From positions 11,966,001 through 12,030,000 of the forward strand of contig NC_092672.1 of assembly GCF_964355755.1 (NCBI RefSeq): a stretch of 64,000 bases of DNA. The letters run 5' to 3'. Source of the DNA: Antedon mediterranea. Lineage: Eukaryota > Animalia > Echinodermata. The notes beneath the pieces were generated by a model. That model did no database searches and was not told where the DNA came from. It worked only from the letters and a program-made list of their open reading frames with translations. Numbering within the stretch: position 1 is the stretch's first letter; every line of letters starts with the position of its first letter. Made by a program: the position numbers and the translations under genes. Of the stretch, positions 8,991-64,000 are shown piece by piece.

Positions 8991-9520
8991 CTAAGCATTA
9001 TATTCTAACTTTTCAGCAGGAACAGTCAAGTTATTCTCCTTTAAAAATGCAATAAATGATTGCAAGTTATCCTCCCTTAGAATCCCCCTTTGTTCAAGAT
9101 CTAATATCACAGTCCATTGGTTGTTACTTTGTTTTTTTAGAACACTTTTCAAACGGATGAGATCTCTTGTATTTTCTTTCGAAAGTGCGTCACCAAACTG
9201 AATTAGGTGTTGTCGATATGTTGAGAAGGAGGTGATACACTGGTTGGTTTTATCAAATTTCTCCTTTAACAGTTTGTTGACCTCCAGAACACCATTGGTA
9301 CCAGTGACATTAATTGCGTCAACAAGAACTTTAACGTTTGTACTGGTAAGATGGCCAGATCGTTTCAATAGGTTGAAGAAATGTATGCAGTCAGCATCCT
9401 GCAAATCATTGTAAGGTGTTATCAGATCTTTGCATAACACCTTCAGTTTATCAATTGAGCCATGTTCATCATACCAGCTTGATATGTTTACCACGATTTT
9501 TTCAAACTCTTCGGATGATC
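8991..9520 (-). CDS. Terminal exon of copy 1: tandem DED-like (death-fold) effector
   Basis: LKVLCKDLI...FFNLLKRSGHLTSTNVKVLVDAI followed by FSTYRQHLIQFGDALS...ILDLEQRGILREDNLQSF. Spacing resembles the DED1-DED2 pair of caspase-8/cFLIP; no RxDL motif. Fold assignment is by eye. Confidence 0.7.
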
Positions 9521-12500
9521 CTGTAAAAAAGAAAACCGAAAACAATTACATTCAGATTTTCAAGTTAGAAATTGTAATAATCATATTGCGCAATATGATG
9601 AATACTATCAATTGAATACACGCATTATTTGGTACACAGTGTATATCGTTGAACACCATGGACATAAACACATTCAATTCACTAGTATCATTCCTATTGT
9701 GGTGCGTTGGTATATTAGTTACCTGGATAAATTGGTGATGGCTCCACACTACTTCTGCCTGGAAATGAAATGATAATAAATGATGTTATATTTTAATTTT
9801 AATTCTTCAAAAGCTGTGTAGATATACTTATTATCATTACATAGATATTCACGTACATTTGTCACTGAAATATATCATTGTTATTTATTTGTAGGTTAAA
9901 TATGTATATAAGTAATATAGTTAGTTGTCATAAAATACATATTTATTTTGTCATTAAACACAATATTGATGAATGTGTAATCCCACCTTCCAAAAATAAA
10001 CGCTTTAAGCGATCAGTTTTCATCGACTTCTCACCACATGGAACAGTGCTGTTGTCTTCTTTTAAACACTCTTCCAGATCGTGTAAATGAATGTGCTCTG
10101 GATAACAGGCGATACACAACACACGTAGGTTGTAACCGATTCCTTCATTAGTTTTCAGCACAGCCTTTAGTTGAAGCTGTAAATAGCTTAGTATCTAAAA
10201 CAAAAAATACATAATCAATAAGTTTGAATGAAACGTTTCTTATAACTGCATTCAGATAAGCTATTACATTACAATATTAGAATCTTTACCTCAATGCATA
10301 AGCTCGGTTTTAGTTCAAATATTTCCTCTGTGTTATTTTCGTCAACTTTACTTCGACGGGATATTTCAAGCTGTTAAAAAAGATGTATTGATTTGTTGAA
10401 TTATTTAACATATTCTATCTCACACTGCTTACGTCTACGTATATTCATTACTGTAAATTTATTTGGTGAATATAATGTATCATTTAATTTTTAGAATTTT
10501 TCAGAGAATTAAAAATACCCGTTGGGCAACCTAGATACCAAAACATTAAAAACTGTAACACAAAATAGCCTCTATATTAATTTTAGTTATATTATTATAA
10601 AATTATTTGTTGTTTTATTGTCTAAGTTACTTTTATTCTAAGAATCTTAAATGAATACATATTATTAGAATACATAAATTATGTTGTAATCACAGCTTGT
10701 ATTATTATCCATCTGTGTAGTCATGATCAGACGTACTTAGCTCTCACTACTGCTAAAACTGATTGAATGTTTAGGAGACCAAATTTCTACATGCAGAAAA
10801 TGATCGGAAATAATTGATAATTTGATATTTGTTTAAAATCTTTCTAAAGACATGCTAGCTAATCAACAGAAATAATAAATATTCAAATTATTGTAAATAA
10901 TGAGTTAAATAAATGTTCGTACCTTCAACGCATGCATGTTTTCATTTTGATGGTCGATTTTCACGGGACCTAAACGAACCTCATGATCTCCAAAGTCAAA
11001 ATCACTACGATTTTGAAATACAACTGGGTCCCGTCCTCTACCTTTAAGCTCCACCAGGTTTAGAAATGCAACAACTAATGTATTGTACACAGAATCAGGA
11101 AGGAAGTCCGTAGGTGTAAGATAAAGTGATACCTTCTGTTTCTTGTCCATTTCAACTTTAAGGCTTTCATCCTTAATTTTCATCCGACATGGAACCAGGA
11201 ACATCCGGTTATCTTCGCTTTCATGCTAATGTAAAATAAGTATTTGTAGTGTTATGAACAATATAATATATAACATCGAACTATATTACTAAAATTATCT
11301 CAGATTTAGTTAAGAGCAAATTTGTTCAACTTACTTCTAATTTCTCATAGAGCAAACCAAATGTTTTCATCACTTCAGTAAAAATATCAAAACGATTTGG
11401 ATCTTCTTCTAATTCTCTTTTCCATAAATGCCGTAGCAATTTTTTCTCAAGGATCCCTTCCTTGTTAAGCTTTTTCCAAAGATTTCTTAATTGTTTCTGT
11501 TTCCAAATAATAAATACAAAAACTAATTTGTAAACGTATTCATACAACCACAATAAATGTTGACAACAAACAACTAACTAAAAGTAATCATGTATCCACA
11601 TGTCAATATTTTAAATCCGTTTTGTGACAATTATTTTGCTGCTAACCTTATCTACTTACCACTTCAATAGTTGGTTCAACCACTGTGATCACTTTTGTCA
11701 CCATTTCAATCATGTAAAGATTTGTTATCACTGTGTTTCTTAATTTCTTGTTAGTACTTGAATACATGATAACTCCAATGTCATTCAGGTACGCTATGGC
11801 AGTGTATAGCCCATTTTTTGAAATTCCACATTCAGTGCCGATTTTAGATGTCTAATGCAAATTAATAACAAAATAGAATTTATTGAATTTGATGATTAAA
11901 TATTGTTATTTTCCTTTAAAATAATTGTAAACAGCTTATTGTTGAATAAAACATAATTTTATCTAACATTCTTCCTTTTGACTTGACATTTTAGAAATCG
12001 CATTGTCGAGAACGCCTATTTCTGGTTAAATGTAACTGTTTCCTTGCATTTTTTATATTTATTTTACATTATCTTTGTTCAGTTTTTTTAGGATGATAAC
12101 TAGCTTTTATTAACATTACGAAACAAACAATTAAAATGTTTGATTTCATTAATAATTTTAGTTGCTCATGTTTTGCGGGAACAACTAAAACAAGAAAAAT
12201 AGTACAATAATGATGAAGACTCCCAAATACTAAAAAATGACAAGACATCTATATTTACTATTGTAATATTAATTCACATCACTGGCTCGAGAAAAGAACT
12301 TGGCAACATTTATTTATTTTATTTATTTATTTATTACCATATTTACTGAGGGTAGCCTATCCAGTAAAAGTAATTGTTACCGTATAGTACACTTTTTTTA
12401 ATAAGATAATAAATTATTTTTGTACCAGCGTTCATACTCTATGTGTTTTATAAATCTGTGTTTACAGTTGTGACAACATAAAATAAACGATTATACATTT

Positions 12501-15500
12501 AAACAAAATACTTACCTCAGTAAAAGTAATACACAGTGTTGTTTTTCCAATTTCTTGCAACTGTTCTTGCAAATCCGCCCATTTTAATGGGACACTTCTC
12601 ACCATGGCCTTCATATAACGACCAACGTTTCTCCTTAGTTGTTTTATACCTTCATGCGATTTTACAGTGTTATCCACCATGTACATCTCACGATCTACAG
12701 GATCGGCATATGGCATTCCTTCCATTTTTTCAAACATTTTACGAAACTTATCCTCCACTTCCTTTAATAAAAAAGTTTTTTCATAAATACAAGCTATAAC
12801 AACAACAAAAATGTAATTATTCTTACAAACTGTTATTTCATATTCTGATTTGAATAAGTCTAACAGATAATTACACTTAATATACGATTTAATTCGTAGG
12901 CTATGCTATTTAAATTTCATCACTGTATCGGTTTTAACTAATTCAGAATTAATCCTGTCCGTGTATACCACATACTGTACCATTGAAAAATTGTAAGCTT
13001 ATTTAATGTTAATGTACGTCTGTTACCTTGATCCAATTTTTGGATTTTGACTTTTTACTAAATGTGTCCATATGTGTAGCAACCAAACAGATAGGAGGTG
13101 ACTCAATGATCTTGCCATCAATATTAATGGGACTTCCTGGACCATGTTGTGCCACAGTATGTTCATAAATGGACCTTATCCAGAACATATTCATTTCCGA
13201 ATTGGTCATTCCTAGTGTACTCTAAAATCACAAATAAAATGCAATCTTATAAAGTAATCTAAAATATTCTCAATAACAAAGATATGCATATTTAATAAAG
13301 TGTATTCGAGCAAATAAGTAGGTACTGTAGGCACTTACTGTAATTGAATCTCGCGGATTAGCTGGTTCATCCAAGTTATCACACGCATTAAACGCTACAC
13401 AGTAGGATACTCTATTTGTGAGGAAAAACTAAACAAAATACAATTGATAATAATAACTTTTTTTTATACTCCAACACATTTATTAGGGATGTGTTAATTG
13501 ATACATGCAATAATACTTTATTGAAAATGTTATACCACAACACAATGTCGTACTGTCACTATGAGCAAATATCTTTATATTTTAATAATCATTTAACATA
13601 TGAAACAAAAACTATAGAACAAACGAAAAAATACATGAATCAAATAAAATTTTAAAATATAATTTAAAGGTCTGTTTAATAAAATAGATACGTAAACAAG
13701 CAAATCAAGACCCTTTTTTTAAACATGCAGCAATAAATTTATTTTTTAATTTTTAAGACATTTTTAAGTAATAGCAAATAACAAAATAGGAACATACCCT
13801 ATGCGTTATGTAGTAGTCCAGTTGACCTGCGTAGTCCCATATCGTAGTTACGTCACTTGGAATACTTTCTGAATCATCACTTTTTACAAATTTCCTAAAC
13901 TTTTTCATCGCCCAACTATCTTTCTGTCTTCGCTTTTTTATTTTAGCAACAACTTTTCTTTGAATTGAGTCGGGAATTGTCAGATTTTCATTTAGTTGAC
14001 TCTCTACATTCAAATAATTACTACAAATCAATGGTGTGTGTGTAAATTAGATATGGATATGGATAGATGGACTGGTCTGATTTTTTGTGATTAGACATAA
14101 TGAATGTTATAAAGGATAAGTAAGTGTATACAATAAATAAATACATTAGTCAGGATAATTAAAGAATTGAACGAGCAGCGAATATTATTCATTGCCCAGT
14201 TTTAATACCGGTACCAATGCAATATTTGCATTTTAATACATTTATATGTTTGCAACAAGAACAACCGCACTCTTCCATACATATTATTTTATTAAATATA
14301 AAGAGTCCAACCCTTTTTTGCCGAATTCTCTGCCAATGACGTGCAATCAGACTCTCTAGAATCTGATGTAGAAGCCTCGCATAAAGGAAGTTCGTTGAAA
14401 GATGTTCTTTCTTTCATCTTTAATGTAATTTCTTCCACTACAGCGTCTTCAAATATTCGCTGGGTTTGCTTGAATCTCAAGTTTTCTGTCGGCGAAAATG
14501 TATAACTAAAAATAATTATTTGTGTCATGTTGCACTCATAACGAATAAAATGGTTATAGTTTTATATACTAGAGCACTGAAATATCACTTATAGGCCTGT
14601 ATAAGCTCCACAGCTCTAAAGTACTACTTTATATTAATAATAATGAAACAATAATATAAACAACACTCCTATGAAGTTATAGTGTTTATTTCAGCATCAG
14701 CATGTATAATACACTACATTAATTTGTTATTTACATTAAATTGGTTTATTTACTTTACAAAACCTAAACAATAAACTAAAATATTAATTTCTCTTTCTTG
14801 TCATGAAATTAATTTGCTGTTATTAATTCGCGTGCTGACTTGATAGGTCTATAGTAAAGTGATTAAAATGCGAAAAACCAAACTTTATTTATGCAAAATA
14901 ATCGTCAATACGTATTATATTATTGATGTTTATTTGAACACTTTAAAAATATTTAAAAAAATAATCAAACCTTCTACTGAATACACAGAGTCAGAAGATA
15001 TAGAACATTCAAAATCAGATATTGAAGGTGTTGAAACTGCACCTTGTAAATGGAATTTGGTTCCAGTTGACGTTTGTTTTTCCATCTTTGCTGTGATGTG
15101 TTCAGGCGTTTTCTGGGATGTTCCTGCAATTCATTCATATATATTTTTGATACAATATATAAAATGTCTAACATTTCACTTTTATGTATGTTTCTATACT
15201 GTATGAGTGCATCTTAACCAATACAGTTTGTTTAGAATAATAAAAATACCCTTGTAATATAAATTGTAGTAGACATTCATCATACCTGTTTTTACTGGAT
15301 CCAAAGAAGAGATTGCTGATGATTCCAGTTGGAAATCAGATTTAGATGTTGACATATCTGAACTTCCTTCGCCATCATCCATTTCTTCTTTTATTAACTG
15401 TGTTGCAAGTTTTTCTGCAAGTGCATCTTCCCGTATTTTCTTGTTGAGCTCCATAACTGTAAAAAAACACAAGGTGAAATAAGGTTGTACGGTACACATC

Positions 15501-18500
15501 ATAGAAAATAAATTAAATACTAAAATTAGAAAAATGAGATATATCATCAAATCACCGGTAAATAAAATAAATATAATATGTAGGTCATTTATGTAATTAT
15601 TGACCAAAATGCATTTTTAAGTATTTATTAAAAATATTATTTCCAATGTACCTTACCGGTACTTATTTACCTTAATTATGGTACTAATAAATCTCTATAC
15701 AAAAATTGGCCAAAGCAGGCAAGTATGCGTATGTTGAAGGAAGAGAGAGTTTCTCTCTTTTGTGGGGACAGCCCACTTTGAACGAACAGTTAATGTGTCA
15801 TTTGTTATGGTTGAATTCTTCTTTTCAAACTTACCGTCGATATCTTCCTTCTTCCACTTGTCACAGTCTTTTCCAATTGCTTGAAACAATGTCGTTGTAA
15901 TAACAATACTATCAGTAGATAGTTCGTTGGAATTAAATCTATAATAATGAATAATGAACTCCAAAAGGTCGGATTTAATGAAAGTAGAATGTATCCAATT
16001 GTTCATCTTAAAATATTAATATATTTAAAATAAAAACGAAGTGAAGATCACAAGTAAATAAGCTGTATATTGATGAAGACCATATATATTTTATTGGTGC
16101 ATCTTATAAAATAACTTGGTTCTTTTGTTACCTTAGTCCAAGCATGGCCTTTACACAGCTAGTTTTTCCAGCACCTTCTTTCCCGAGAAACACACATCTT
16201 GAATTTACAACTGCAATCTCACCATTTTCAAGTTCATTTTGAAATGATCTAACTGCCCTCTCACCTCTAGCTAATATTTCATCTGGAACTAAATTGCAAT
16301 TAAAATGAATGCAAAATATACAAAAACAAATGTAAAAATACAAATATTTTACACTTAAGAATCAATTCGAAGCCATAGTTTTAACAATGTCATTATGACT
16401 GCTCATCTTTGTCACATTCATACAGTTCAAAGGTTCAGTACAATTTTAAATGTGTGTCATTAGTAATATACTGTTTAATATTCATGATGCAAAACTCAAG
16501 AAAAGTGTATTAATGCAAACTTACTGTCAAATAACTTCAATATCTTATTTTTCGTCTGTTGGGAGATTAGAATATTTTCCTTCAAAGCAAACAGATGCAG
16601 GTGTTTCTCCTCGCTATACAAAAAAATGTATTAAAGTATTATCCACTGTTACTTTACTAATACTAGTAATGTACATAATCCGGATTGTAATGAATACATT
16701 TATAAGCCAATAACGTGCACACGTTAATATGACACAATCTGAGTACCTTTGCACTAGCCAACACCAACACTAACTGCTCTACCATTTAATGTTTAATGTG
16801 ATTGAATACGGTACACTTTAAAAATGCTATTGAAAATTTGTATAAAAGAATAGTCGATACTGATTAAATGTACATGTTAATTATCGCATCTATGAGAATG
16901 TACCCCAATGCTAACATAATGACTTTAAATAATTAGCGCCCTTTCTGATATTCTTTAGCTCCATGTTAATAACATACTCCTAATCAAAATAAGAGTATAC
17001 CTTGGATATAGGCGTAATGGTTTGCTTAATAAGCACAATTTAAAAATGCAAATTCAATTTTGCATTAATTGACGGTACCTTGTTTCTTGCTCTAAGTGAT
17101 GCTCCGTGGGCTATGAGACTGTTCACAATTTCTAAATCACCAATACTGCTAAAGCTGACGTGTCCATGTAGCGGTGTGTTTCCCTCCTGGAAAGCAGAAA
17201 GTTTTATGTATTATAATATACATTTTACACGTTTGATACTAGAACTAAGGTTTAAACACATATATTGTATTATTATCTTTCAGTAGGACTTCGATGATCA
17301 TCCCTGCCAAATCGCCAGGACTTGTCTGGTGGGTGTAGGCCAACTGGAAATGCGTCTGACAAGTGGACAGCAGGGAATGAGTCCAACGGATGTGAAGCAT
17401 GTCTATTGATTATAGATTATAGAATGAAAGTTAGATGATAAATCTTAATTGGGGTAAAAAATTAACTTCATTAATGTAAACGGGGTCCCATCGTTTTATT
17501 ATTTTTTATGAAATCATACACATAAGCGCCATTATTGGTTCGGCATCATAGTCCTCATGGTTTATGGTAAAAAAATTGTCAAGTAAATGGAGTATGTTGT
17601 TAATTGTCTACGATAGACCACAGTACATCATTACTGTAAATAATACAACTAGTTGATTTTAATTGGGACGTGGAGAGGTGTTAGCAATGAACATAATTTT
17701 GAAAGTATTGGTATTAACGTCTTGTTAAATGCGGCAGCTATATGATGTTTAAAATAATTTAAACTCACTTTGATAAATAAATATGACTTTTTTTCAAAAT
17801 AAAAATAAATTAAACAAATCCAAGGTTTGTTTATACGGGAGCTCATTTAGATTAACTTATATTGTTAATTAATACAAATGATAACGTTATTGATTTTTTA
17901 ATCATTTTGAAAGAGTAATTTACATTGTTTGTTATATAGATACAGACGGGTTAGCGCTGAACACATTTTAAAACTATTAATTTAGCGTCTTGTTCAACGT
18001 GTCTATGTAGCGGTGTGTTTCCATTCTGAAAAGTAGAAAGTTAGATTAAACTTGAGACATTTTTTTAAGAATACAGGTATTATTATATTACATATTTATC
18101 TTTTTCTATATTAATTTTCTAATTCATTAAGAGTGACTGTAAATTATATAGAAAAACCTGGTATTAAGAAAATAATACAACTTGCTGATTTTAATTATTA
18201 TAATACAGACGGGTTAGCAATGAACACATTTTAAGAAAATAATACAACTTGCTGATTTTAATTATTATAATACAGACGGGTTAGCATTGAACACATTTTA
18301 GAAGTATTGTTCAATCTAAAACGCTACAGCTACACGATTTTTAATATATTTTAAATTGTATTTCTGCTTTGATAATAACTATTATATTGTTTCCAATGAA
18401 AACACATTAAACGAATCTATGGTTTGCTTATAACGGGAGATAATGTAAATTAACTTATAGTGTTAACTAATACAAATAATTACGTTAATGATTTAAATCA

Positions 18501-21500
18501 TTGTATAAGAGTAATTTACATTGTTTGTTGCTGTGATTGATGCTCCGTGAGCCATAAGACTGTTCACTATCTCTACATTACCATCGCCAAGTGCAACGTG
18601 TCTATGTAGCGGTGTGTTTCCATCCTGGAAAGAAGAAAGTTAGATTAAACTTGACGCTTTTTTTCAAGAATACAGGTATTACTTTATTACATATTTTCCT
18701 TTTCTATATCAATTGTGTAGTTCATTGAGAGTTAACTGTAGATTATATAGATAGATATATTATATACACTTTTCCAATGAAAAACACATTAAACGAATCT
18801 TGGGTTTGCTTATAACGGGAGATAATGTAAATTAACTTGTAGTGTTAACTAATACAAATAATTACGTTAATGATTTTAAGTCATGGTAAAGGAGTAATTT
18901 ACATTGTCTGTTGCTGTGATTGAATCTCCGTGAGCTATGAGACTGTTCACTATCTCTACATTATCACGGCCCCACCAAACGTGTTCATGTAGCGGTGTGT
19001 TTCCATCCTGGAAAGAAGAAAGTTAGATTAAACAACTTGACGCATTTTTTATGCGAATACAGGTAGTATTATATTTCATATATATCCTTTTCTACATTCA
19101 TTTTCTAATTCATTAAAAGTGACTGTAGATTATATAGAATGACCTGGTATTAAAAAAATAATAAAACTTGCTGATTTAAATTATTATAATGCAGAAGGGT
19201 TAGCAATGAACACATTTTAAAAGTATTAATTTAGCGTCTTTTTCGATCTAAAACGCTACAGCTACACGATGTTTAATATATTTTAAATTGTATTTTTGCT
19301 TTGATAATAACTATACATTTTTCCAATGAAAAACACAATCAATGAATCTAGGGTTTGCTTATAACGGGAGATAATGTAAATTAACTTGTAGTGTTAACTA
19401 ATACAAATAATTACATTAATCCTTTTTAATTCATTGTAAAAGAGTAATTTACATTGTTTGTTGCTGTGATTGATACTCCATGGGTTATGAGACTGTTCAC
19501 TATCTCAACATTACCACTGCCCAACCTAACGTGATCATGTAGCGGTGTGTTTCCATTCTGGAAAGAAGAAAGTTAGTATTATTATATTTCATATTTTTCT
19601 TTTCTACATTCATTTTCTAATTCATTAAGAGGGAATGTAAATTATATGGAAATACCTGGTATTAAAAAAATAATGACTAACTGATTTCAATTAAGACATG
19701 CAGAGGATTTAGCAATGAACATCATTTTGAATGTATTGATGTTAGCGTCTTGTTTAATCTAAAATTCGACAGCTGTACATGATGTTTAAATATCGTAAAT
19801 TATATGGTGATGGTTAATAACTAAAAATAATATAATTTATTAAATTAATAAACATATTCCTACACCTGGACATTTCGTTTAGATTCAAGTAAACTTTCAT
19901 GAATACTGAATTTGTAGATATGTATGTATTTACATAACATAATTGCAAATTCCAACAATACACACTACGGTGAATTCAATAAATATTTTGTTATATTATT
20001 AATCTACTATCCATCCCACCTTCATCCTACAATAAAAAAAAATATTACGTAATTCGTTTCTCCCATTTGCTATGAGGCTTTTGAATGCAAGCTATGTGTA
20101 TGTATCGTGTTATATGACATTTGCCTTTTTGTTATATTTGTTGCATTTGTATTTTATCCTATTGGTGACGTACTGTCTGTAGTTTACCATTTTTTTTTCT
20201 ACTACGAATAATAACGTTAATGATTTAAATAATAGTAAATCTCTGTCAACGCTACCAAACTGTATCAATAAAGTGTCGTACTGTCTGTATTTTACCAATT
20301 GTATCATATCTTTACTTTATTTATTTAATATGTGACAAGCAGGAAAGTTTGTTTTACATTTCTCAGAGCTTGTTGGTATTTCATCATAATTACATTTTTC
20401 ACAAATTAAAATATTGTGGTTTAGGGCCTACATAGTTATTCTACCGTATCAACAGTGACGCAACTTCCGGGTTCCCATGAGAGGCACGACCAGTGTCCGC
20501 TAAGATCATTGTACTTCCAGAACCGCGACAGGTCAGACGTGTGCGCTAGTTGGATATTGTTTCTTTGGATACATACGGCGTGAGGATCATCGCAGTTGTG
20601 GGCTTCATAAAAGGTAACGTTAAAATTTTGCTTTAGGTGTAGTTGCTAGAGGACTGGGCGGACTGTATTACCGTACGGACGCCCTTAATTTAGCCTATAT
20701 GTCTTTATTTCTATCTCCTTATCTTATGATGAATTCGGAGTAGGCTATTATAAATTGGGAATGATGGCGTGCAAGTGAGGCTATATGCGTGGTCGCCATC
20801 TTTAATCTATGGAATGTTATGCAGGCTGTGGCATGCCGCATATTTTTGTTAAAGGGAAAGTAAGTTACTCGTTTCCCTAATGCAGTGTTTTGTTTTACAC
20901 CTGCACAATGGAGAGTAAGCTGATAGTCTCCGTTCACTCAATTAGCCAATGCGTTAAAAAGGCTATAATTTATAATTTATAAATTCATTGCTATATCAGG
21001 CGGTTGTTGGGCCTTCTACTATACTACTAGGCCTAGAGCAGGCCTATTACCATAGAGATATTATAATTTCTCTATGCTATTACTAATTAATAGTAGGTAT
21101 TGCTAGCTAGGCCTTGACTGGCAAATGTGCATGTATGCGAGTATACTAAGCAGGTCATGACCTTAATGGTATGTCTGTTGCATACAGGTGTTAAGCGATT
21201 TTCTAATATGGCAGAACATGATGGCTCGCCAGGTGGTGCAGCTTTTAGTGTTGGTGATAAATTAAAGGAGGAGTTGATTAACTCGATGTCGTCAATGGTG
21301 GCCAGCATGAAGCAAGATTTGGTTCAACAAGTCAAAGACATGGTTGACTTCACAGAAGAGCCTGATGAGGGCCAGTCCTATATGCCTGTGTGGTTGGATG
21401 ATGAGCTCCCCGCTGCACAAACAGCACAGCGCATTGATGAGTACACAAGTGGGCCAGAGGAGGTAGCTACAGCTAGTCAAACCAGTGATTTTGCTGACGT

Positions 21501-24500
21501 AGCAGCTGAATTTAGTACAACCACACTTACAGGGCCAGCTGTGGATGATAAATTGGCTATAATTGTAAGTGACCTGATTAGTGGAAGGATACTCCCTGCA
21601 AAGATGACTGAGCTTACTGGAAAATATCTTCGACCACTCAACTGTGAAATGCTAATCACACCCAAGGTGAACTTACCTGTGTGGGGCCAGTTGAAACCTT
21701 CTACCAGGACCAATGATGTTGGGTTGCAGAAAGTGCAGGCACTGTTCGTAAACTCTATGTATGCTCTCGCTCCAAGCATGTCACTAGGCCTCAGGTGATT
21801 TGAAAACTACATTGACGCATGCACTGGTTATAGCGCTGACTGCAAACCGGGAGTTTAACCTGAAGCGAAGGGAGATGTTAAAACCAGACCTTAACGCACG
21901 ATTTGTTGCACTCTGTGGGGTGACGACTCCCATAACCACAGAGCTCTATGGAGATGATGTTACCAAACAGATAGACGATCTCTTCAAATCAAACAAACTT
22001 GGCGAGAAATTATCAGGTGCTAGAAGAGGTCGGGGTCGTGGATACCACCCATATGCAGGAGCCAGACGAGTTGGTTTCCGCAGCCGAGGTGGAAGTCGCT
22101 CAGGGTTCCAGAGGTACCAGTCAAACCAGTCTTTTTTAGGAGGAAAGGGCTCCTACCAACGCAGACAGGGAGCCCGGCTGGCTGCTCAACCAAAGGGAAA
22201 TCGAGAGTAGAGGTCAGTTTTGTTAATCAGATTAATAAAATTCTTAATAATATATCATGGTAGTTTTATTGCAGGTCAATTAAGGTTCTGCGTGGACCGT
22301 TGGAAAGAGATCACTACGGATCCCTTTGTTCTGTCATGTGTTACCAATTGTGAAATTGAATTTGAAGCTATGCCTATGCAGGCTGGCTATAATCGACAAT
22401 TAGAGTCGCAATTTTCTGTTGCTGAGCAACGAGCTATTGACTCAGAACTTGCATCTTTTTTGGCCAAAAGGGTTATTGACATTTCCAAACTATGTAAAGG
22501 AGATTTTGTTTCGCCTATCTTTATCCGTCCCAAAAAAGAACCGGGTAAATATAGAGTTATTTTCAACCTTAAGGAACTTAATGAGTATGTCACTTATAGG
22601 CATTTTAAAATGGACACGATAGATTCGGCAATATAGCTTATGAAGCCGGAGTGTTTTATGTCATCCATCGACCTCCGGGACGCTTATTCGGTGCCTATTG
22701 CAGCAAAGTATAGACGGTTTCTTAAATTTTGTTGGAAAGGTGTATTTTACCAATTTAATGCGCTACATATGGGCTTATCTTGTAGCCCTCGCGTTTTTAC
22801 AAAGCTGCTGAAGCCAGTTTTTTCTACTCTAAGGAGTAGCTTTGGTATCTCATGCCTGGGTTATATTGATGACTCGTTTTACACTGACGACACATTGGCG
22901 ACACATTGGCGGGGTGTCAAGAGGCTACTTTGCAAGCTACAATGCTGCTAACAAAATTAGGTTTTTCAGTTCATCGGGAAAAATCTGTACTTAGACCCAC
23001 TCAGCAGTTAGAATACATAGGATTTCAATTAAACTCGGTGTCTATGTCTGTTTCGGTTACCAAAGCAAAGATATCAAGCATTGTTGGCATTTGCAGAGAG
23101 TTTGTATTTAAGAAATCTGGTAGCATCCGGGCATTTGCTTCACTCATAGGTAAGCTTGTTGCGACATTCCCAGGCGTGGAATATGGACCGTTATACTACA
23201 GACATCTTGTCCGAGACAAAGATTTGGCATTGCGGCATTCAGCCGGTAATTTTGAGGTGATGATGATCCTCTCGGAAGAGAGTATAATTGAACTTGAATG
23301 GTGGATAACATTTCTCCCACCAGCCTCAAAACTGATTAATCATGGCCCTATTAACTATACGATCTTCGTAGATGCTTCCCGCAAGGGCTGGGGGGGGGGG
23401 GGGGGCATAGTTGACGAGAGCAGAACGCAGGGGCTGTGGTCCCTAGAGGAAGCTGTTCACGACATAAACATTCTAGAAATGCTTGCAGCGCTATTTGGTT
23501 TACAGGCACTTTGTGGCCATTTGCACAAAGTGCATATTCGTATCATGTCGGACAACGCGACCGCTGTCTCATATATAATTTGTATGGGAGGTACGAAATC
23601 GTGGTCATGTAATTCGGTTGCCTACAAGATTTGGTACTGGGCAATAGAGCAAAATATTTGGCTTACCGCTGCTCATACTCCGGGCATAAAAAATGTAGAG
23701 GCAGATGTTCTGTTTAGAAATTTTGTATCTGGGTTAGAATGGCAAATGAATGCAGGTATTTTTTCTAAGACTGTTGACTGTTTTGGAGTGCCGGATATTG
23801 ACTTATTTGCTAGTCGAATTAATCATAGGGTACCGGCATATGCGTCTTGGAAACCAGATCCAAACGCTGTTATCATTGATGCTTTTACCAGTGATTGGTC
23901 AACATTTAAACAATTTTATGTTTTCTCCCTTTTTGTCTGATAGCTAGATGCCTACAGAAAATTTTACTGGAACATGCCACGGGCATCATGGTGGTGCCAC
24001 TGTGGAGAACACAGGCATGGTTTACGAGAGTTCTCGACTTACTCATCGACACACCACGCTGGGTGAGGGTCAACAAGTCAGTGTTAGAACACCCACTTAT
24101 TCATCACCATCCACTAAGCTCACAGTTATGTCTACTAATTTGCAAGTTGTCAGGGAAATCATCGCTGACGTCAGCCTACCGGCAGAAATTGACAGAGCAC
24201 ACAGAAGCAGTATGACTTACACATCAGAAAGTGGCGTCAATTTTGTTTTCAAAGAAAAATTGATTTCTTGCACCCCGTTGTAGGAGATGTCTTAAAGTTT
24301 TTACATAACCTTTTTAAAGAAGGTCTTTCTTACTCCTCGCTTAACACGGCTAGGTCAGCGTTAGCATGTTGCTTCACTGACTATCATGGCAGGGAGGACT
24401 GGATGCTTGCCATCGTCGCATAACATGCTCGTTTAACTAACAAATAAACAAGTAGCAAAATCTGTTTTACCACATTTGACCAGTGTCATAAAAAACTTCT

Positions 24501-27500: not shown

Positions 27501-28139
27501 GCAGTTTTAGTATATTAGTAAAGTATATTGTGTCTGTTATTTCATAAATTTGTCATATTCACTTGACAAGCAGCTAGTATAACTTATAGAAAAGTTACAT
27601 CATATTCAACGCAATTAGAAGTATCTCTGAAGACCTTTTTGAAGCTCCGGTTAATCCTTATGAGAAAGCTCATACCGAACGTTGTATGCATATTAATCCG
27701 CTTAGTCAGTTTACTGTATGTCTATTCATCCGCTGGATTCAGTGTTCAGTGTGAATAATATCCTTTGAAAAATAGTTGGATTGTATAATTATATAAATAT
27801 ATAGTTTCTATACCTTAGCTACGGAGTTCACAAGATGTGGATATGTTGTACATATTTCTTCAATTTCTTCCAAATCTCTACATCTTAGGCCTACAGCGTC
27901 TTGCAATAAGTATCTTAAAAAAAAAGACAAAAATGCATCATGGCAAGAATATTTGGGCAATAAAGTTAATATGTTTATTTTTCATGTTTATAAACAATAT
28001 AAAAAATAATAATAAAAATATAACATTCTTTGAACTATTTTAAAATATTAAGAGTTTGTTGGATATAAAAGGTAAAGCTTACTACTCCATTTAAAAAATG
28101 AAGTCTCCCTCAATTTTAAGATATAACTTACTCATCCAT
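8991..28139 (-). CDS. Multi-exon ankyrin-ROC-COR-tandem DED protein, copy 1 (~1208 aa; may carry a frameshift). Coding exons: 28132-28139, 27814-27913, 19453-19557, 18903-19007, 18520-18624, 17079-17186, 16525-16613, 16132-16288, 15835-15938, 15286-15456, 14971-15123, 14312-14485, 13798-14003, 13339-13428, 13027-13221, 12516-12761, 11660-11851, 11335-11496, 10923-11225, 10290-10370, 9987-10194, 9723-9758, 8991-9520
   Basis: Manual splicing with GT-AG boundaries and matching phases at every junction except a 1-nt excess in 16525-16613. Motifs: GNTPLH ankyrins; ROC G1 GKEGAGKTS, G2 STDSI, G3 WDYAGQ, G4 THMD; COR-like YLNDIGVIMY and KEGILE...LW; C-terminal double DED-like helical domain. Confidence 0.85.
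9987..12761 (-). CDS. COR-domain exons of copy 1, ending in a CxxC...HxH...C...C motif
   Basis: VPLKWADLQEQL, AIAYLNDIGVIMY, LWKKLNKEGILEKKLLRHLW, FLVPC, LCIACYPEHIHLHDLEEC...VPC. Confidence 0.8.
13027..16288 (-). CDS. ROC GTPase exons of copy 1, including three phase 1-1 insert exons
   Basis: PDEILARG pre-ROC motif, GKEGAGKTS P-loop, STDSI, IWDYAGQLDYYITHRFFL, PPICLVATHMD. Confidence 0.9.
17079..17186 (-). CDS. Ankyrin repeat exon (108 nt, phase 0-0): EGNTPLHGHVSFSSIGDLEIVNSLIAHGASLRARNK
   Basis: AG/GT flanks; ankyrin consensus G-TPLH...L...GA. Confidence 0.88.
17924..18025 (-). pseudogene. Chimeric ankyrin pseudo-exon (102 nt, splice sites intact, in-frame TAA)
   Basis: Reads NGNTPLHRHVEQDAKLIVLKCVQR*. 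The centre is replaced by the array's intron block tacagacgggttagc...tttagcgtctt. Confidence 0.75.
18520..18624 (-). CDS. Ankyrin repeat exon (105 nt): DGNTPLHRHVALGDGNVEIVNSLMAHGASITATNN
   Basis: ttccag acceptor, gtaaat donor, open frame. Confidence 0.9.
18903..19007 (-). CDS. Ankyrin repeat exon (105 nt): DGNTPLHEHVWWGRDNVEIVNSLIAHGDSITATDN
   Basis: ttccag acceptor, gtaaat donor, open frame. Confidence 0.9.
19453..19557 (-). CDS. Ankyrin repeat exon (105 nt): NGNTPLHDHVRLGSGNVEIVNSLITHGVSITATNN
   Basis: ttccag acceptor, gtaaat donor, open frame. Confidence 0.9.
20440..24372 (+). mobile_element. DIRS1-like tyrosine-recombinase retrotransposon, frameshifted and 3'-truncated, intronic in copy 1
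   Basis: gag-like ORFs 21127-22210 (KYLRPLNC...PKVN); RT (FKMDT, LGYIDD); RNase H (FVDAS, HDINILEM, MSDNATAV); methyltransferase-like domain (PDIDLFASRINH...DAF); start of the YR N-terminal domain (LSYSSLNTARSAL), then truncation. The 5' boundary is approximate. Confidence 0.9.
24652..25135. mobile_element. MITE with CACTG-type TIRs (CMC/EnSpm-like), TA flanks
   Basis: (a)actgtaaaaatagtgtttagatct ... agatctaaacactatttttacagtg, with many internal aaacatgt/aaacacgt subterminal repeats. Confidence 0.7.
25930..26240 (+). pseudogene. Degenerate BEL/Pao RNase H fragment
   Basis: VSRCYKPHGFGEVKQAEIHYISDACE and a downstream SNPSDIVSR motif. Confidence 0.65.
26423..26999 (-). mobile_element. Helentron-associated (HINE/DINE-1-like) non-autonomous element, internally deleted copy
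   Basis: Reverse complement of the 34330-35130 element: sub-TIR agtcgcgtg/cacgcgact, (GTCY)n microsatellite, end ggctgttggccttgt. Confidence 0.8.
27814..27913 (-). CDS. N-cap ankyrin exon of copy 1: (E)YLLQDAVGLRCRDLEEIEEICTTYPHLVNSVAK
   Basis: Poly-T-aag acceptor and gtatag donor. Phase 2 in matches ATG GAT GA of the preceding exon; phase 0 out joins NGNTPLH. Confidence 0.75.
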
Positions 28140-28185: not shown

Positions 28186-31100
28186 TGTGTTGCTCTTATT
28201 TTAGCTGCACCGTTCCTTTCCGAGAGAGGGCGTATGTAAATAGGATCCATGTTATAAGTTTCGTATTGACTACATGTGTTCTAGAGTTCGACTTCTAAAT
28301 GTCTTATTGTGCCGAGATAGTGTGTAATTTACTAAACTAGTAGGCCGCACATTGCTTGTAAGTTGTTAGAGTATTATATTACAATAATTAGAATTATATG
28401 AACCACAGTAGTGGCCTAGATTATTAATGCTATACTGTACTACATTGTGGTCGTAGGCCTAGGCCTGCGTAGATTGAATCGTATACGATCGCTTGAACAG
28501 CATGGCGATAAACACGAGTCTCCGTGTAGAGGGCGGTGTTCTATTTTGTATGCCGTATCTATAGAAGTAGTACGTCCGTATGAGGGCGCTGTTGATTATT
28601 TGATGACTTTGTTTAATATGTTCTTTAGGCATGTACACCTCCGTAAGAGGGCGCTACGTTTGATCTGTTTTGCAGATAGTTTATGTTATGTTTATTATTA
28701 CTATTTGGAGCTGGATTTAAGTATGCTTAATTTCAGTTCACCCTGTTTATGGCTGAATTTGCTGTATTAAAGAGTCAGTCAACAAGTGATTGTGTTGCAG
28801 TATTTTTTGTCGTGGATTGGGTTTATCTACTGAATAGCGAGTTTGACGGTTCAAGCTCGTGAGGTCAGCACAGTGAAAAGCAATGTCGACTTCTAGTAGA
28901 AGACGTGATGGTGCGAGAGATGATGCAAGGTCAATAGGGTCAAGGAGCCATAGATCGAAGGCATCATCGCAGTCAGTGTCATCATTAGAAGTATCTGCTG
29001 CACAAGCTCGTGCTGATGCTGCTGTAGCGAAAGCTCGTGTTACATTTGCGAAGAAGAAGAGTGCCGCTAAGTTAGAGGCGTTGAAGGCTGAAATGGAAGC
29101 AGCTAAAGCTATGTTAGACATAGACGAAGTAGAGAAAGAAGAAGAAATGGCTGCAGCACAGGCTAGAGCCAATGTCCTTCAAGCAGAATTGCAACATATG
29201 TCTTTTGAAGATATTGAGGAAGAGCTTTCACAGCTAGAAAGCAATAATCAGATGGAAGAGGTGCAAGGCGCACCCCAAGATGCAGTACCCAGTCAAAGAA
29301 TGGCAGAGGTACTTAACGAACTTCCAAAGATGGAACCCAGTCAGCGGGTAGAAAATTATCTAAACAATGCTGTAGAGGTACCAACGTCTACTCTTAATCC
29401 TGGAGCTAGATCTTACGAACCAAATCATATGCAGGAGTACATTCGAATACTGGCACGTCAGCGATTACCCTTGCAAGAACCGGATATTTACTCTGGGGAT
29501 CCAATAATGTTTCTTCCGTGGAAAAGATCCTTTGAAGCTATGGTGAAAACAGCCTATGTGGACACTGTTGAAAAGCTGTCATTCCTGTGTAAATATACTA
29601 CTGGCGAAGCAAAAGTTTTGGTTGATCGATTCAGACTAAGGCATGTTGAAGATGTTGACAAGGCCTATCATGAGGCCTGGACTGAGCTAGAAGACAGGTT
29701 CGGGAACCAAACCTTAATATCAGCTGAAATCATCCTGAGACTTACCAAATACAGAAGATTCAAAGCAGGTGATTTGACCGCACTCCAAGAACTGGCTGAT
29801 TTGTGTGGAGACGCAGTTGCTCAAATGCAGGAGCTACCCCATCTGATTACGTTAAACACTCCTCATGGTATTAAACCAATTGTAGAGAAGTTACCACACT
29901 TCATAATTAATAAATGGAGAGAAAAGGTCGCAAAACATAAAAGGAAAATGAAAACGTTCCCGAATTTCAGCATTTTCACAGAGTTTCTAAGTGAGATGGC
30001 TCACATCCAACGTGATCCTGATGTCCCAAGAGGAATTGTTGATGAGGTCAAAACTGATACACCGGGAAACTACCGTACACAGACAGGTTACCGTCCTAAG
30101 ACCACGCAACGTTCAACTGTAAATGTGAGAATGACTGAGGTGAATAAATCTGAAGGGATGTGTCCGCTACACAATGGTCAGCATCCGTTGGTAGACTGTA
30201 GAAACTTTCTGGCCAAGACTTATGCTGCCAAGAAGTCATTCTTTAAGGAAAACCAAGTATGTTTCCGATGTCTCTCATCTACATCACACATGGCTAGGAA
30301 TTGTGATAGAAATGTCAGGTGTGGAGAATGCGGTAGTGATCGTCACCCGACTGCATTCCATGGTGACCGTCCGCAGAAGGCGAATGGCGGGGAACAAGTA
30401 AAAGCGGAGCAAAAGGCAAATGGCGGGGAGCAAGTAAAAATGGAGCAAAAGGCAAAAGGTGAGAAGACAAATGGCGGGGAGCAGGGGACAGAGTCGCAGA
30501 AGACGAAGGAAAGAGACAAAGTAGTAAGTACTACATGTACGGATGTCTGCGGTGGAATTGGGCTGAGCCGATCGTGTGCAAAAATATATTTAGAAGACCA
30601 TCCTAACACTTTCATAAAAACCTACATTATACTAGACGACCAAAGCAATCGCTCGTTGGCCAAGAGTGAGGTATTCGACCTTTTTAATATCAATGCAAGA
30701 CTTACGTCGTATACTTTGAAGACTTGTTCGGGAGCGGCTGAAGTTCAAGGCCGAAAACTGGAGAAGCTGATAATTGAGTCCATGGATGGTAAAACAAGAA
30801 TAGCAGCCCCATCGCTACTTGAATGTAATGACATACCTGGGAACAAGGCAGAAATTCCCACTCCAGAGACAGCCAGCAATTTTCCTCACTTGAAGGATAT
30901 TGCGGATAAGATACCACCCTTGGATAAGAATGCAAATATTACCATACTGCTCGGCCGAGATGCTGCTCAAGCTCATAAAGTCCGAGAAGTACGCAATGGA
31001 CCAAATCACTCTCCATGGGGCCAACGACTTGATCTAGGCTGGATGGTTATTGGCGACGTCTGCTTAGGGGGAGCCCACCAAAAGAATATTGTCACCGCCA

Positions 31101-33894
31101 ACAGAAACCATATAAAGGTTTTGAGAAATGGTAGGCCATCCGCCATGTTTACAACTTGTAAAGGAATGATCAGTGCGAAGGAAATAACCCTGAGACACAG
31201 CTGTGATGGACTCGGTGGTAATGTATTCCAACAGAAAGAAGATGACGAGAAGTATGGAATGTCCAGAGAAGATGTGGAGTTCGTGCAACTTATGGGAAAA
31301 GAGATGAAACGAGGTGAACAAGGAAATTGGATAGCCCCACTTCCTTTTCGAGAAGAAAGAAAAAGGTTACCCAACAACAAGCAGCAAGCAATGAATCGTA
31401 TGCAGTCTCTTATTCGCACACTGGATAAGAAGCCAGAGATGAAAGCTCACTACTTAGCGTTCATGGAGAAAGTATTCTCAAAGCAACATGCTGAGCTCGT
31501 CGAAGATGACAGTCATGATGAAGAGTGCTGGTATTTACCACACTTTGGTGTGTACCATCCTCAAAAGCCAGGGAAGATCCGGGTGGTTTTTGATTCCAGT
31601 GCGCAATTCCAAGATACATCACTTAACAACGTGTTAATGAGTGGACCAGATCTGGTAAATGGGTTGCTTGCTGTATTGATACGGTTCAGGCAGGATCCTG
31701 TGGCGTTTGTAGCAGACATTGAGCAAATGTTCTACTCATTTCAAGTCGTGGAAGAACACAGAGATTATCTTCGGTTCCTGTGGTTCGAAGACAACGACCC
31801 CAGCAAAGTATTGAGAACGTATCGGATGAAAGTTCACATCTTCGGAAACAAACCTTCTCCAGCTGTTGCTACGCTAGGACTGAGAAAGACTGCACAAGAA
31901 GGAGAGAGCGAGTTTGGCGCAGATGCAAGAGAGTTCGTGGAGAAGAATTTTTATGTCGATGATGGGCTGAAGTCTTTAGCTACTTCAGATGAGGCGATCG
32001 ACCTGCTCAAGCGCACACAAGCCATGTTAGCCACAGCTAATTTACGATTACATAAAATTGTCTCAAACGATGCAAAAGTGATAGCGGCTTTCTCACCTCA
32101 AGATGTAGCAAGTAACATGTGCAACCTCGATCTCGGATCCGACGCTCCTCTTACGCAAAGGTCATTAGGAGTACTGTGGGATGTCAAGTCAGATGCCTTT
32201 ACTTTCTCTATTACGGAGGTTAGCAGCAAGACATTCACTAAGCGAGGAGTGCTGTCAGAAATCAACAGCATATATGACCCAATCGGCTTTGCGTCACCTG
32301 TCATTATAGAGGGAAGAAGGCTGTTAAGGGAAATGACAAAGGATCAATGCATAGATTGGGATGAGCCATTACAGAAACAACTACGGTCAGATTGTGGGAC
32401 GAATTTTGTTTGTGCGTGCAATATCTTGGGTGAAAGTATTCAGAAAGAAGGACAAGATAAAATTAAACGCTATCTATTGACCCGTGAATGTGAGTGGGTG
32501 TTCAACCCGCCTCATGCATCCCATATGGGAGGAAGTTGGGAACGTATGATTGGAGTAGCAAGGAAGATTATAGATGGTATGTTTAGAGATCTTGGAGAAA
32601 CCAAGTTAACCCACGAAGTCCTGGTAACACTAATGGCAGAAGTATCAGGAATTATTAATGCACGACCCTTAGTAGAAGTCTCTACTGATCCTGAATCACC
32701 ACAAATAATATCACCAAACACTCTACTTACTCAAAAGTCTCAACCATTCGCAGCACCTCCTGGAGCGTTTTGTAATGCTGATTTGTATGGTAAGCAGTGG
32801 CGAACGGTACAGCACTTGGCTAACAAATTTTGGTCAAAATGGAAAAGAGACTATATCCCTACACTTCAGAACAGAAGCAAGTGGCAACATGAAAAGAGGA
32901 ATATAAAGGAAGGAGATATTGTTCTTCTAAAGGAGAAAGACACCGTCAGAAATGATTGGCCTATGGGACGAATCGTTAAAGCAATTGAAGGATCAGACGG
33001 ACGAGTTAGGAGAGTGGAAGTGACTGTTTATAGAGGTGGAGAACTGAAAACCTTTGCAAGACCGATTAGTGAATTGGTACTGATAATGCCGACTCCTTAA
33101 GAGTTACATTGAACATTATTATAATGAATATTATGTCATATTCCTTTGTTATTTGTTTATGTTTTAACTTTTTGTATAATGGTATCCTTTAGATACCAGA
33201 CGGGGAGTGTGTTGCTCTTATTTTAGCTGCACCGTTCCTTTCCGAGAGAGGGCGTATGTAAATAGGATCCATGTTATAAGTTTCGTATTGACTACATGTG
33301 TTCTAGAGTTCGGCTTCTAAAGGTCTTATTGTGCCGAGATAGTGTGTAATTTACTAAACTAGTAGGCCGCACATTGCTTGTAAGTTGTTAGAGTATTATA
33401 TTACAATAATTAGAATTATATGAACCACAGTAGTGGCCTAGATTATTAATGCTATAATGTACTACATTGTGGTCGTAGGCCTAGGCCTGCGTAGATTGAA
33501 TCGTATACGATCGCTTGAACAGCATGGCGATAAACACGAGTCTCCGTGTAGAGGGCGGTGTTCTATTTTGTATGCCGTATCTATAGAAGTAGTACGTCCG
33601 TATGAGGGCGCTGTTGATTATTTGATGACTTTGTTTAATATGTTCTTTAGGCATGTACACCTCCGTAAGAGGGCGCTACGTTTGATCTGTTTTGCAGATA
33701 GTTTATGTTATGTTTATTATTACTATTTGGAGCTGGATTTAAGTATGCTTAATTTCAGTTCACCCTGTTTATGGCTGAATTTGCTGTATTAAAGAGTCAG
33801 TCAACAAGTGATTGTGTTGCAGTATTTTTTGTCGTGGATTGGGTTTATCTACTGAATAGCGAGTTTGACGGTTCAAGCTCGTGAGGTCAGCACA
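28186..33894 (+). mobile_element. BEL/Pao LTR retrotransposon, recent, internally deleted
   Basis: 687-bp TG..CA LTRs (28186-28872 and 33208-33894; 3 mismatches seen), 5-bp TSD gttgc (28181-28185 and 33895-33899), PPT agacggggag. Confidence 0.97.
28883..33100 (+). CDS. BEL/Pao gag-pol polyprotein (1405 aa) lacking RNase H and the integrase N-terminus
   Basis: Three Cys/His knuckles, protease ILDDQSNRS, RT FYVDD, integrase core SDCGTNF...GGSWER fused directly after WDEPL. Confidence 0.92.
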   Translation: MSTSSRRRDGARDDARSIGSRSHRSKASSQSVSSLEVSAAQARADAAVAKARVTFAKKKSAAKLEALKAEMEAAKAMLDIDEVEKEEEMAAAQARANVLQAELQHMSFEDIEEELSQLESNNQMEEVQGAPQDAVPSQRMAEVLNELPKMEPSQRVENYLNNAVEVPTSTLNPGARSYEPNHMQEYIRILARQRLPLQEPDIYSGDPIMFLPWKRSFEAMVKTAYVDTVEKLSFLCKYTTGEAKVLVDRFRLRHVEDVDKAYHEAWTELEDRFGNQTLISAEIILRLTKYRRFKAGDLTALQELADLCGDAVAQMQELPHLITLNTPHGIKPIVEKLPHFIINKWREKVAKHKRKMKTFPNFSIFTEFLSEMAHIQRDPDVPRGIVDEVKTDTPGNYRTQTGYRPKTTQRSTVNVRMTEVNKSEGMCPLHNGQHPLVDCRNFLAKTYAAKKSFFKENQVCFRCLSSTSHMARNCDRNVRCGECGSDRHPTAFHGDRPQKANGGEQVKAEQKANGGEQVKMEQKAKGEKTNGGEQGTESQKTKERDKVVSTTCTDVCGGIGLSRSCAKIYLEDHPNTFIKTYIILDDQSNRSLAKSEVFDLFNINARLTSYTLKTCSGAAEVQGRKLEKLIIESMDGKTRIAAPSLLECNDIPGNKAEIPTPETASNFPHLKDIADKIPPLDKNANITILLGRDAAQAHKVREVRNGPNHSPWGQRLDLGWMVIGDVCLGGAHQKNIVTANRNHIKVLRNGRPSAMFTTCKGMISAKEITLRHSCDGLGGNVFQQKEDDEKYGMSREDVEFVQLMGKEMKRGEQGNWIAPLPFREERKRLPNNKQQAMNRMQSLIRTLDKKPEMKAHYLAFMEKVFSKQHAELVEDDSHDEECWYLPHFGVYHPQKPGKIRVVFDSSAQFQDTSLNNVLMSGPDLVNGLLAVLIRFRQDPVAFVADIEQMFYSFQVVEEHRDYLRFLWFEDNDPSKVLRTYRMKVHIFGNKPSPAVATLGLRKTAQEGESEFGADAREFVEKNFYVDDGLKSLATSDEAIDLLKRTQAMLATANLRLHKIVSNDAKVIAAFSPQDVASNMCNLDLGSDAPLTQRSLGVLWDVKSDAFTFSITEVSSKTFTKRGVLSEINSIYDPIGFASPVIIEGRRLLREMTKDQCIDWDEPLQKQLRSDCGTNFVCACNILGESIQKEGQDKIKRYLLTRECEWVFNPPHASHMGGSWERMIGVARKIIDGMFRDLGETKLTHEVLVTLMAEVSGIINARPLVEVSTDPESPQIISPNTLLTQKSQPFAAPPGAFCNADLYGKQWRTVQHLANKFWSKWKRDYIPTLQNRSKWQHEKRNIKEGDIVLLKEKDTVRNDWPMGRIVKAIEGSDGRVRRVEVTVYRGGELKTFARPISELVLIMPTP

Positions 33895-34329
33895 GTTGCT
33901 GAAAAATGAAACCGAAACTTATATGTATATTACTTGTAATATAGCATACTAAATTGAAAAATGAACAGAAAACAAAATACATTTGTATATAGTAGGCATA
34001 TTGTCTTAGAAAAATTACAAGAATTGATATTTATTCGAGTAGGCCGAGTAGATATACGGCTCTGCTCTATATCTATATATAAATTTACGTAAGGGCAACA
34101 TTCGGTAAATCGCGCGTTACTTCTAGAATGTTAACTCGATGGTATACAAAGTTAGGTCTTACTTTCGGTACTGATTTTCACCACCTGGTGTAACCCTGTT
34201 TACTAATTAAATTGAGTTAGATAATTAGTTATTGACAATTAAATCGAATTTAGGTTCAACGATTTGCCCCAAATAGGGGTGCTTTCTGTTCGTTGTAAAC
34301 ACTGATAATGTTTCAAAGCTATTATGTTA

Positions 34330-63347: not shown

Positions 63348-64000
63348 CTAAAATCATAAATAGATGCAATCTTACAAATTAAGCTAAAAATATTCTAAAT
63401 ATTAAACATTATTAGCAAATACAACGAACAATATGTGAGAAAAACATATAATTGTCTACCAGTTTCCAGGAAGGTTCAAGAAGTCGGCAAATATACCACT
63501 TTCATCTAACGCCCGTATTCTTAAACCTGACTTTAGTCGTAGTACGAGCTAAAACTAAAAAAATGACGTCATTTTAATTCATAAACCGAACTTCAACTAA
63601 ATCACCGACTAAATCAAGCCAACCTCGACTAAATCGAGACGGATTTTGATCGATTTTTTTAGTCCTGGAGGGGCAGGCTAAATTGTCGACTAAATGGTTT
63701 TTAAACGATTTTTATAAAAAACGTAACAGTCACTGAGTTGTTGTATTGGCCAGATATTGAAGAATGAAATATCTATATTTATATTAGCTTAATTAAATAT
63801 ACATTGGTATAAGTTATAATAATGAAAATCATCTTTATTTACAACTGTATACAAATTACATTATTTTCTTCGCGCAAGTCCGACTTGAACTACGTCACGC
63901 CATAGCGACAATGGGAGATGCGGCAATTCACCACGCGATGGAATGTTTGGGAAATATGACCGTTATCGCGAAATTTTCGACTTCGCATGACGTCATTAAT

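Follow-up and report, generated by a model that had tools for sequence, protein, structure and literature searches.

Why should a gene carry a run of similar ankyrin exons whose differences crowd into a handful of codons? The question arises from a stretch of 64,000 nucleotides of the crinoid Antedon mediterranea (assembly GCF_964355755.1, contig NC_092672.1, positions 11,966,001 to 12,030,000), hereafter the window, which holds such an array on its minus strand. An initial annotation, made from the letters, saw in it a specificity generator driven by recombination or splicing under diversifying selection. Our analysis points instead to a family of putative NLR-like intracellular immune receptors, diversified by the gain and loss of exon units in the germline, through duplication and deletion, together with selection on a few binding-face codons, an explanation that we hold to be reasonably probable. 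The copy in the window is itself probably broken.

The array and the gene around it

The array is real: four intact exons, each bounded by AG and GT and in phase 0-0, encode one repeat apiece, and Pfam Ank scores above its cut-off for all four (Table 1). One repeat per phase-0 exon is often found in ankyrin genes in general. The initial annotation had described these exons and their four motifs correctly, but it overlooked a fifth, broken copy and drew the array too long, since its upstream limit lies at 19557, and neither the interval from there to 27814 nor the rest of the window contains any further ankyrin exon. Its view that exons were duplicated together with their introns applies to the three 105-nucleotide exons (a1, a2 and a3, mutually 74-80% identical) and to the broken one; the terminal exon a5 has only its acceptor side in common with the other units, 12-15 of 22 downstream bases being different. 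An assembly artefact was ruled out as the source of the array, as the units differ across exon and intron and RefSeq proteins show the same design.

The broken exon retains its splice sites and consists of codons 1-10, about 60 nucleotides of intron-unit sequence that include an in-frame TAA, and the last four codons. Its middle matches intron 19244-19185 at 88.5%, and the template switches at codon 11, where the variable codons start. While its upstream flank is as distant from the other units as these are from one another, its downstream flank is far more diverged (singleton changes 2 of 26 upstream versus 22 of 37 downstream, p = 2e-5). This asymmetry fits a deletion that fused two units, the likely origin of the exon, and by that reasoning the gene likely once carried at least six repeats. 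A 67-bp tandem duplication (18164-18300) lies within the intron preceding the broken exon.

Repeat number also differs between copies. The window copy has 4+1 repeats versus six in P0018 (XP_071944626.1), a paralogue with the intact design of MDE, N-cap, six repeats, C-cap and ROC, and cassette number differs across paralogues, with 6, 4, 2, 5, 8, 1 and 1 repeats in seven A. mediterranea models, some of them truncated. The fused fifth exon and these differing numbers together support germline gain and loss of exon units. In P0014, an eight-repeat protein of a sister subfamily, the most similar repeats are often non-adjacent, repeats 1, 2 and 7 and repeats 3 and 8 being mutually nearest.

The array forms the sensor end of an ANK-ROC-COR-DED gene that runs on the minus strand from 28139 to 8991, far past the 17079..19830 to which attention had been drawn. 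The gene has the ROCO architecture, ROC followed by COR: its exons encode a P-loop and WDYAGQ, and most of them are 81-100% identical to A. mediterranea models, whose relatives in the cluster carry Pfam Roc and COR-A. The nearest proteins are likewise from A. mediterranea, with 95% identity over the DED exon. An N-terminal kinase is absent, as both the gene and P0018 begin with MDE and continue into the N-cap.

What the initial annotation missed is the state of this copy. Its C-cap exon is four bases longer than the 28 codons plus one base of three paralogues, which produces a frameshift from the homologous acceptor; alternative AGs at +4 and +7 would restore the reading frame at the cost of the RGxTP motif. 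In the switch-I exon, Ser replaces a Gly found in 12 of 12 relatives, and a BEL/Pao element occupies the likely splice acceptor upstream of the ATG. Given the frameshift, the switch-I change, the transposon at the splice site and the stop in the fused exon, the window copy is probably a recently dead, decaying pseudogene or null allele, although the remaining ROC-COR-DED exons are open. It probably belongs to a birth-and-death family, and most of its close relatives lie on one 39-Mb A. mediterranea contig.

Nine runs from three studies were available, none on record as RNA (X8 is RNA by guess), and the contigs of X2, X5, X7, X8 and X9 were compared. The family members are spliced as predicted: X8 and X9 contigs join ankyrin to ankyrin exons (56 letters on the short side) and ankyrin exons towards the C-cap (43 letters) at exon boundaries and continue from C-cap to ROC at an exon boundary, and one X8 contig passes from an ankyrin exon to the N-cap exon type through a loose end of 31 letters. 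These contigs differ from the window copy and so are not evidence for it. No X8 contig spans most of its C-cap exon, and at several places (e.g. 16253, 16282 and 16607) the window letters occur in no contig of the five of nine runs compared. One X8 joint connects an a3-like exon with the terminal exon; having only 21 letters on one side and perhaps coming from a paralogue, it was not taken as a sign that the broken exon is skipped.

Variation along the exons and the case for selection

Exons a2 and a3 differ at 16 nucleotides, 11 of them in codons 8, 11, 12, 14 and 15 and five elsewhere, exactly as had been counted, although this is the most extreme of three pairs (10 versus 8 for a1-a3, 5 versus 8 for a1-a2). 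Clustering in a 24-nucleotide scan test is significant for a2-a3 (p = 0.0007) and a1-a3 (p = 0.022), and codons 9, 10 and 13, interleaved with the variable ones, are identical in all three exons. Across codons 8-15, 10-11 of 24 nucleotides differ in two pairs versus about 10-16% in flanking introns, the excess over introns holding in two of three pairs (p = 4e-5, 9e-4 and 0.06). In a neutral simulation, 11 differences within any 24-nucleotide window arose in 0.04-0.7% of runs.

These codons can be placed on a surface known from protein design. Exon codon n corresponds to library position n+2 of designed ankyrin repeat proteins, or DARPins (PMC3308923, Table 2; here and below, statements about cited papers refer to the parts of their text available to us), and codons 8, 11 and 12 therefore equal the randomised helix-1 positions 10, 13 and 14 (PMC3308923). 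P0018 was modelled by AlphaFold, with a pLDDT mostly above 85 across the repeats and a predicted fold that matches DARPins and ankyrins; in this model, codons 8 and 11 lie in helix 1 and codons 12-15 in a turn that exceeds that of a standard repeat by two residues. The proposed match to the DARPin surface is thus good for codons 8, 11 and 12; it does not extend to hairpin positions 2, 3 and 5, which barely vary among a1-a3, nor to codons 14-15, which fall in a turn insertion that DARPins lack.

We fitted a codon model with fixed sites to exons a1-a3, using 202 intron columns as a neutral scale. The six library positions (PMC3308923), the only site set fixed independently of the data, gave an omega of 4.6 (p = 0.0009; exon only 5.0, p = 0.01), codons 8-15 an omega of 4.2 (p = 0.0003; 4.1 without introns, p = 0.011) and codons 8, 11 and 12 an omega of 15 (p = 2e-6; 35 without introns, p = 3e-5), with the framework at 0.45-0.83. 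The same sites vary beyond the window. Over 12 repeats, four from the window and eight from three A. mediterranea proteins, entropy reached 2.25-2.52 bits at codons 8, 11, 12 and 14 and was 2.0 bits at codon 1, and 13 of the 35 positions did not vary at all. Among the five internal repeats of P0018, sites chosen in the window differed in 31 of 50 comparisons versus 56 of 300 elsewhere (p = 0.006), and P0014 is variable at the same turn. Diversifying selection at predicted binding-face codons, as originally proposed, is supported by these comparisons of sequence.

Several points count against this interpretation and the wider explanation of which it is a part. Comparable DNA is limited to three exons, the 8/11/12 and five-codon site sets were picked after inspection of the data, and the a1-a2 pair is unclustered in the scan test (p = 0.91). 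Local counting at codons 8, 11 and 12 gives a pN of 0.68 versus a pS of 0.79, hence pN not above pS, because these are multi-hit codons, and at the five codons only a small excess (0.61 versus 0.43). Multi-base mutations or short conversion tracts can inflate omega. Repeat 1 of P0018 is similar to a3, which makes the P0018 test partly dependent on the window, and the lesions of the window copy imply that selection could only have acted earlier. Furthermore, mosaicism among the window units was not significant (11 informative sites, p = 0.49), the repeat counts of paralogues come from automatic gene models, some of which clearly lack part of their 5' end, and the Pfam DED match of the last exon (E 7e-8, 33 bits) falls below the 35.9 cut-off.

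It could also be that no selection for diversity was involved, and that the frameworks are kept alike by conversion, with surface codons free to drift under relaxed constraint or to take block mutations. The unclustered a1-a2 pair, a pS that is locally high within the variable codons, a framework omega of up to 0.8 in a decaying copy and a broken exon that likewise switches at codon 11 would all be in keeping with such a process. Nevertheless, we consider it unlikely in view of the divergence of codons 8-15 relative to introns, the rarity of comparable windows in the neutral simulation, the unchanged codons between the variable ones and the recurrence of the same variable sites in paralogues.

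Probable gain and loss, and possible exchange, of modules

If selection on contact codons and germline turnover of units did act together, the receptors might work as follows. A foreign ligand would bind the helix-1/turn surface of the ankyrin array, the ROC-COR GTPase would switch state, and clustered DED-like domains would recruit a caspase or adaptor. Symmetric exons would allow repeats to be added, lost or skipped without a change of frame, and the repertoire would shift over generations through unequal recombination of exon units, selection on contact codons and the birth and death of paralogues, with exon skipping probably a minor extra layer.

Such a sensor-switch-effector logic is suggested by the varied ends found on ROC-COR cores. 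Among 34 relatives scanned, N-termini comprised ANK, TAZ-KIX, Neuralized, Macro, DED and CARD-fn3, and C-termini DED, Death, HEPN and TIR; nine of the ten ROC-COR relatives looked up are from Antedon or Anneissia. A simple motif scan of 143 more distant ROC-COR relatives found repeat arrays in five, none near-identical internally by eye. Two tandem paralogues in the window (ends at 8991-9520 and 55974-56519) have COR exons with 76-88% DNA identity, whereas at the protein level the likeness of the DED-like exons is only about 29% (P0008 versus the second copy), a disparity that suggests effector swapping.

Two further observations concern the same positions. Transcription-cofactor or Macro domains occupy the sensor position in the ROCO relatives P0166 and P0187 (TAZ, KIX), P0158 and P0183 (Macro) and P0268 (QLQ), P0166 and P0158 being crinoid proteins, an arrangement reminiscent of integrated decoys in plant NLRs. 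In P0138 and P0140 of Anneissia japonica, ROC-COR ends in HEPN_DZIP3, a predicted nuclease replacing the DED.

The DNA contigs of X2, X5 and X7 contain many unit-to-unit joints, with paralogues mixed. In one X7 contig (joint 18575/18004), codons 8-17 are swapped in register for an open block, in which reading by eye gives I-YL-LK-H-SAG-L. This block places the HxYL motif of the sister subfamily in the framework of the window subfamily, possibly as a chimeric exon or by block conversion.

As for splicing, diversity could come mainly from combinatorial skipping of symmetric ankyrin exons within each animal, which we judge quite unlikely. All repeats are in phase 0-0, the stop-bearing exon with its intact splice sites would need to be skipped for a working copy, and exon skipping has been reported in brown-algal ROCO genes (PMC11378527). 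The search for skipping isoforms that had been recommended yielded one RefSeq pair, isoforms X1 and X2 of a single A. mediterranea paralogue (XP_071957837.1 and XP_071957838.1), one of which lacks exactly one repeat (36 residues, same register). However, this sole sign of skipping comes from automatic annotation of near-identical exons, arrays in the models seen have at most eight repeats, so that the combinatorial space is small, and divergence at the level of codons is left unexplained. Of the specificity generator first envisaged, germline gain and loss of units is supported; with mosaicism not significant and a single isoform pair, no dedicated generator, somatic or splicing-driven, is shown. 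Improbable on the whole, too, is a natural DARPin library evolved independently by crinoids, in which the ankyrin exons of a ROCO-based family of death receptors would be reshuffled and combinatorially spliced so rapidly that every animal or immune cell had a repertoire of its own.

A different target is conceivable, namely conspecific self/non-self or selfish elements, as for fungal NLRs in allorecognition. In fungi, NLRs whose ANK repeats are conserved and under positive selection have been tied to non-self recognition (PMC4986451), and the locus is rich in retroelements; but the effector mix of DED, TIR and HEPN suits anti-pathogen defence. We also know of no tissue fusion in crinoids that could serve as a recognition context, and consider this reading very improbable. 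Programmed somatic rearrangement or templated mutation of ankyrin exons, with receptors differing from cell to cell, has been hypothesised, not shown, for Ectocarpus ROCO genes (PMC3341825) and could draw on the template switch of the broken exon at the start of the variable codons, but it is exceedingly improbable here, as the 64-kb window contains no opposite-strand ankyrin exon copy, cassette reservoir or recombination signal and the asymmetric flanks of the broken exon are consistent with an ordinary deletion involving two units.

Table 1. Positions of the gene, its tandem paralogue and associated elements in the window
Feature	Position	Strand	Basis
First exon, coding part: ATG GAT GA, then GT donor	28132..28139	-	paralogue P0018 starts MDE
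N-cap exon, phase 2-0	27814..27913	-	90% to P0018 residues 16-35
Ankyrin exon a1, D-HV-RL-G-SG, 105 nt	19453..19557	-	exon reading, Pfam Ank
Ankyrin exon a2, E-HV-WW-G-RD, 105 nt	18903..19007	-	exon reading, Pfam Ank
Ankyrin exon a3, R-HV-AL-G-DG, 105 nt	18520..18624	-	exon reading, Pfam Ank
Broken ankyrin exon, 102 nt, splice sites intact, in-frame TAA	17924..18025	-	
Terminal ankyrin exon a5, G-HV-SF-S-SIG, 108 nt, 36 codons	17079..17186	-	exon reading, Pfam Ank
C-cap exon, 89 nt	16525..16613	-	paralogue comparison
ROC exon with P-loop GKEGAGKT	16132..16288	-	sequence and paralogue comparison
ROC exon reading NELSTDSI, presumably switch I	15835..15938	-	comparison with relatives
Four exons, ROC insert through WDYAGQ	13798..15456	-	
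Rest of ROC, COR, linker; nine open exons	9723..13428	-	Pfam Roc, COR-A on close A. mediterranea relatives
Last exon, DED-like domain, probably tandem	8991..9520	-	Pfam DED
Tandem paralogue, 3' half: ROC end, COR, divergent DED-like exon	55974..63409	-	
Reverse transcriptase (RT)-like insertion inside tandem paralogue	58835-60268		
BEL/Pao long terminal repeat (LTR) retrotransposon, LTRs 99.6% alike, 5-bp target duplication	28186..33896	+	Peptidase_A17, DUF1759, DUF5641
Degenerate retroelement open reading frames, presumably DIRS-like from layout, in intron between N-cap exon and ankyrin exon 1	21118..24283	+	RVT_1

Other elements in the window are a Gypsy-type LTR retrotransposon (39885-48452) with LTRs 99.8% alike and open gag, pol and integrase frames, a Penelope-like RT/GIY-YIG element (50226-52904) with an 864-bp inverted duplication, and a 47-bp minisatellite of about 15 copies (48527-49240). 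A 519-bp element with GACA/GACC microsatellite ends occurs twice in opposite orientation (26423-26940 and 34612-35130, 98.7% alike), with fragments near 36843 and 62026, and inverted-repeat elements resembling miniature inverted-repeat transposable elements lie at 5864-6952 and 24650-25137.

Relation to known receptor systems

Searches of the open-access literature, which left out most subscription journals, turned up no account of ANK-ROCO exon arrays in crinoids or other animals, and the available parts of PMC8195603, PMC9334734 and PMC5135030 do not describe the family of the window. The domain order itself is not new: clusters of ANK and Roc are common in molluscs, sponges and arthropods, and an ANK-ROC-COR-Death protein is present in a hemichordate. 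DAPK1 has an N-terminal Ser/Thr kinase followed by ANK, ROC, COR and a death-fold domain, and the crinoid gene has the same ANK-ROC-COR-death-fold order as DAPK1 and its kinase-less ANK-ROC-COR-Death counterparts. It differs in having no kinase, its ATG exon leading directly to the N-cap, in ending in a DED-like rather than a Death domain and in its recently duplicated hypervariable repeats.

The likeness to DARPins, whose library positions are defined in PMC4308713 and PMC3308923, consists of N-cap, internal repeats and C-cap with variable helix-1 positions 10, 13 and 14. The differences are that the crinoid gene is natural, that its repeats exceed those of DARPins by two to three residues and carry a variable insertion in the turn, and that hairpin positions 2 and 5 show hardly any variation, whereas position 3 varies mainly in P0018.

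Fungal NLRs of Podospora have conserved ANK repeats under positive selection (PMC4986451), and they resemble the crinoid genes in similar frameworks, variable inner-helix sites, variation in repeat number and sensor-NTPase-effector logic. On the other hand, the crinoid switch is a ROC-COR GTPase and not NACHT or NB-ARC, its sensor is N-terminal, its repeats lie on separate exons, and a1-a3, at 74-80%, stay below the criterion of 85% over 100 amino acids.

The closest parallel is with the leucine-rich repeat (LRR) ROCO genes of brown algae, candidate receptors with exon shuffling in which each repeat occupies an exon of its own, inactivated exon copies and numerous pseudogenes occur, and selection is positive (PMC3341825; PMC11378527). 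The analogy with Ectocarpus drawn by the initial annotation is closer than claimed, as the crinoid gene is itself a ROCO. Both have a ROC-COR core with one sensor repeat per symmetric exon, repeat numbers that differ between paralogues, clusters with pseudogenes, and positive selection on the predicted binding face (here in three exons only). A partial likeness is the inactivated exon copy in the array, here a single one on the coding strand, the window having none on the opposite strand. They differ in that the crinoid repeats are ankyrin, 35-36 amino acids and phase 0, and the algal ones LRR, 24 amino acids and phase 2; the crinoid gene, moreover, is that of an animal and has a C-terminal DED-like effector and shorter arrays. 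The crinoid system works like brown-algal ROCO genes, yet it is not a member of that group, its repeats being ankyrin and not LRR.

The design principle has already been published for brown algae and fungi, and ANK-ROC proteins are widespread in invertebrates. If our explanation is true, ROC-COR would play the part of NACHT in NLRs and ankyrin exons that of LRRs, and an animal would have arrived by convergence at a third kind of variable intracellular receptor. It would also offer a defined candidate family for crinoid immunity, a subject on which we found little literature, and, as its variable sites are few and mapped, long reads could directly test for selection, skipping and somatic variation. 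The immune hypothesis for brown-algal ROCO genes would then be backed from an unrelated lineage.

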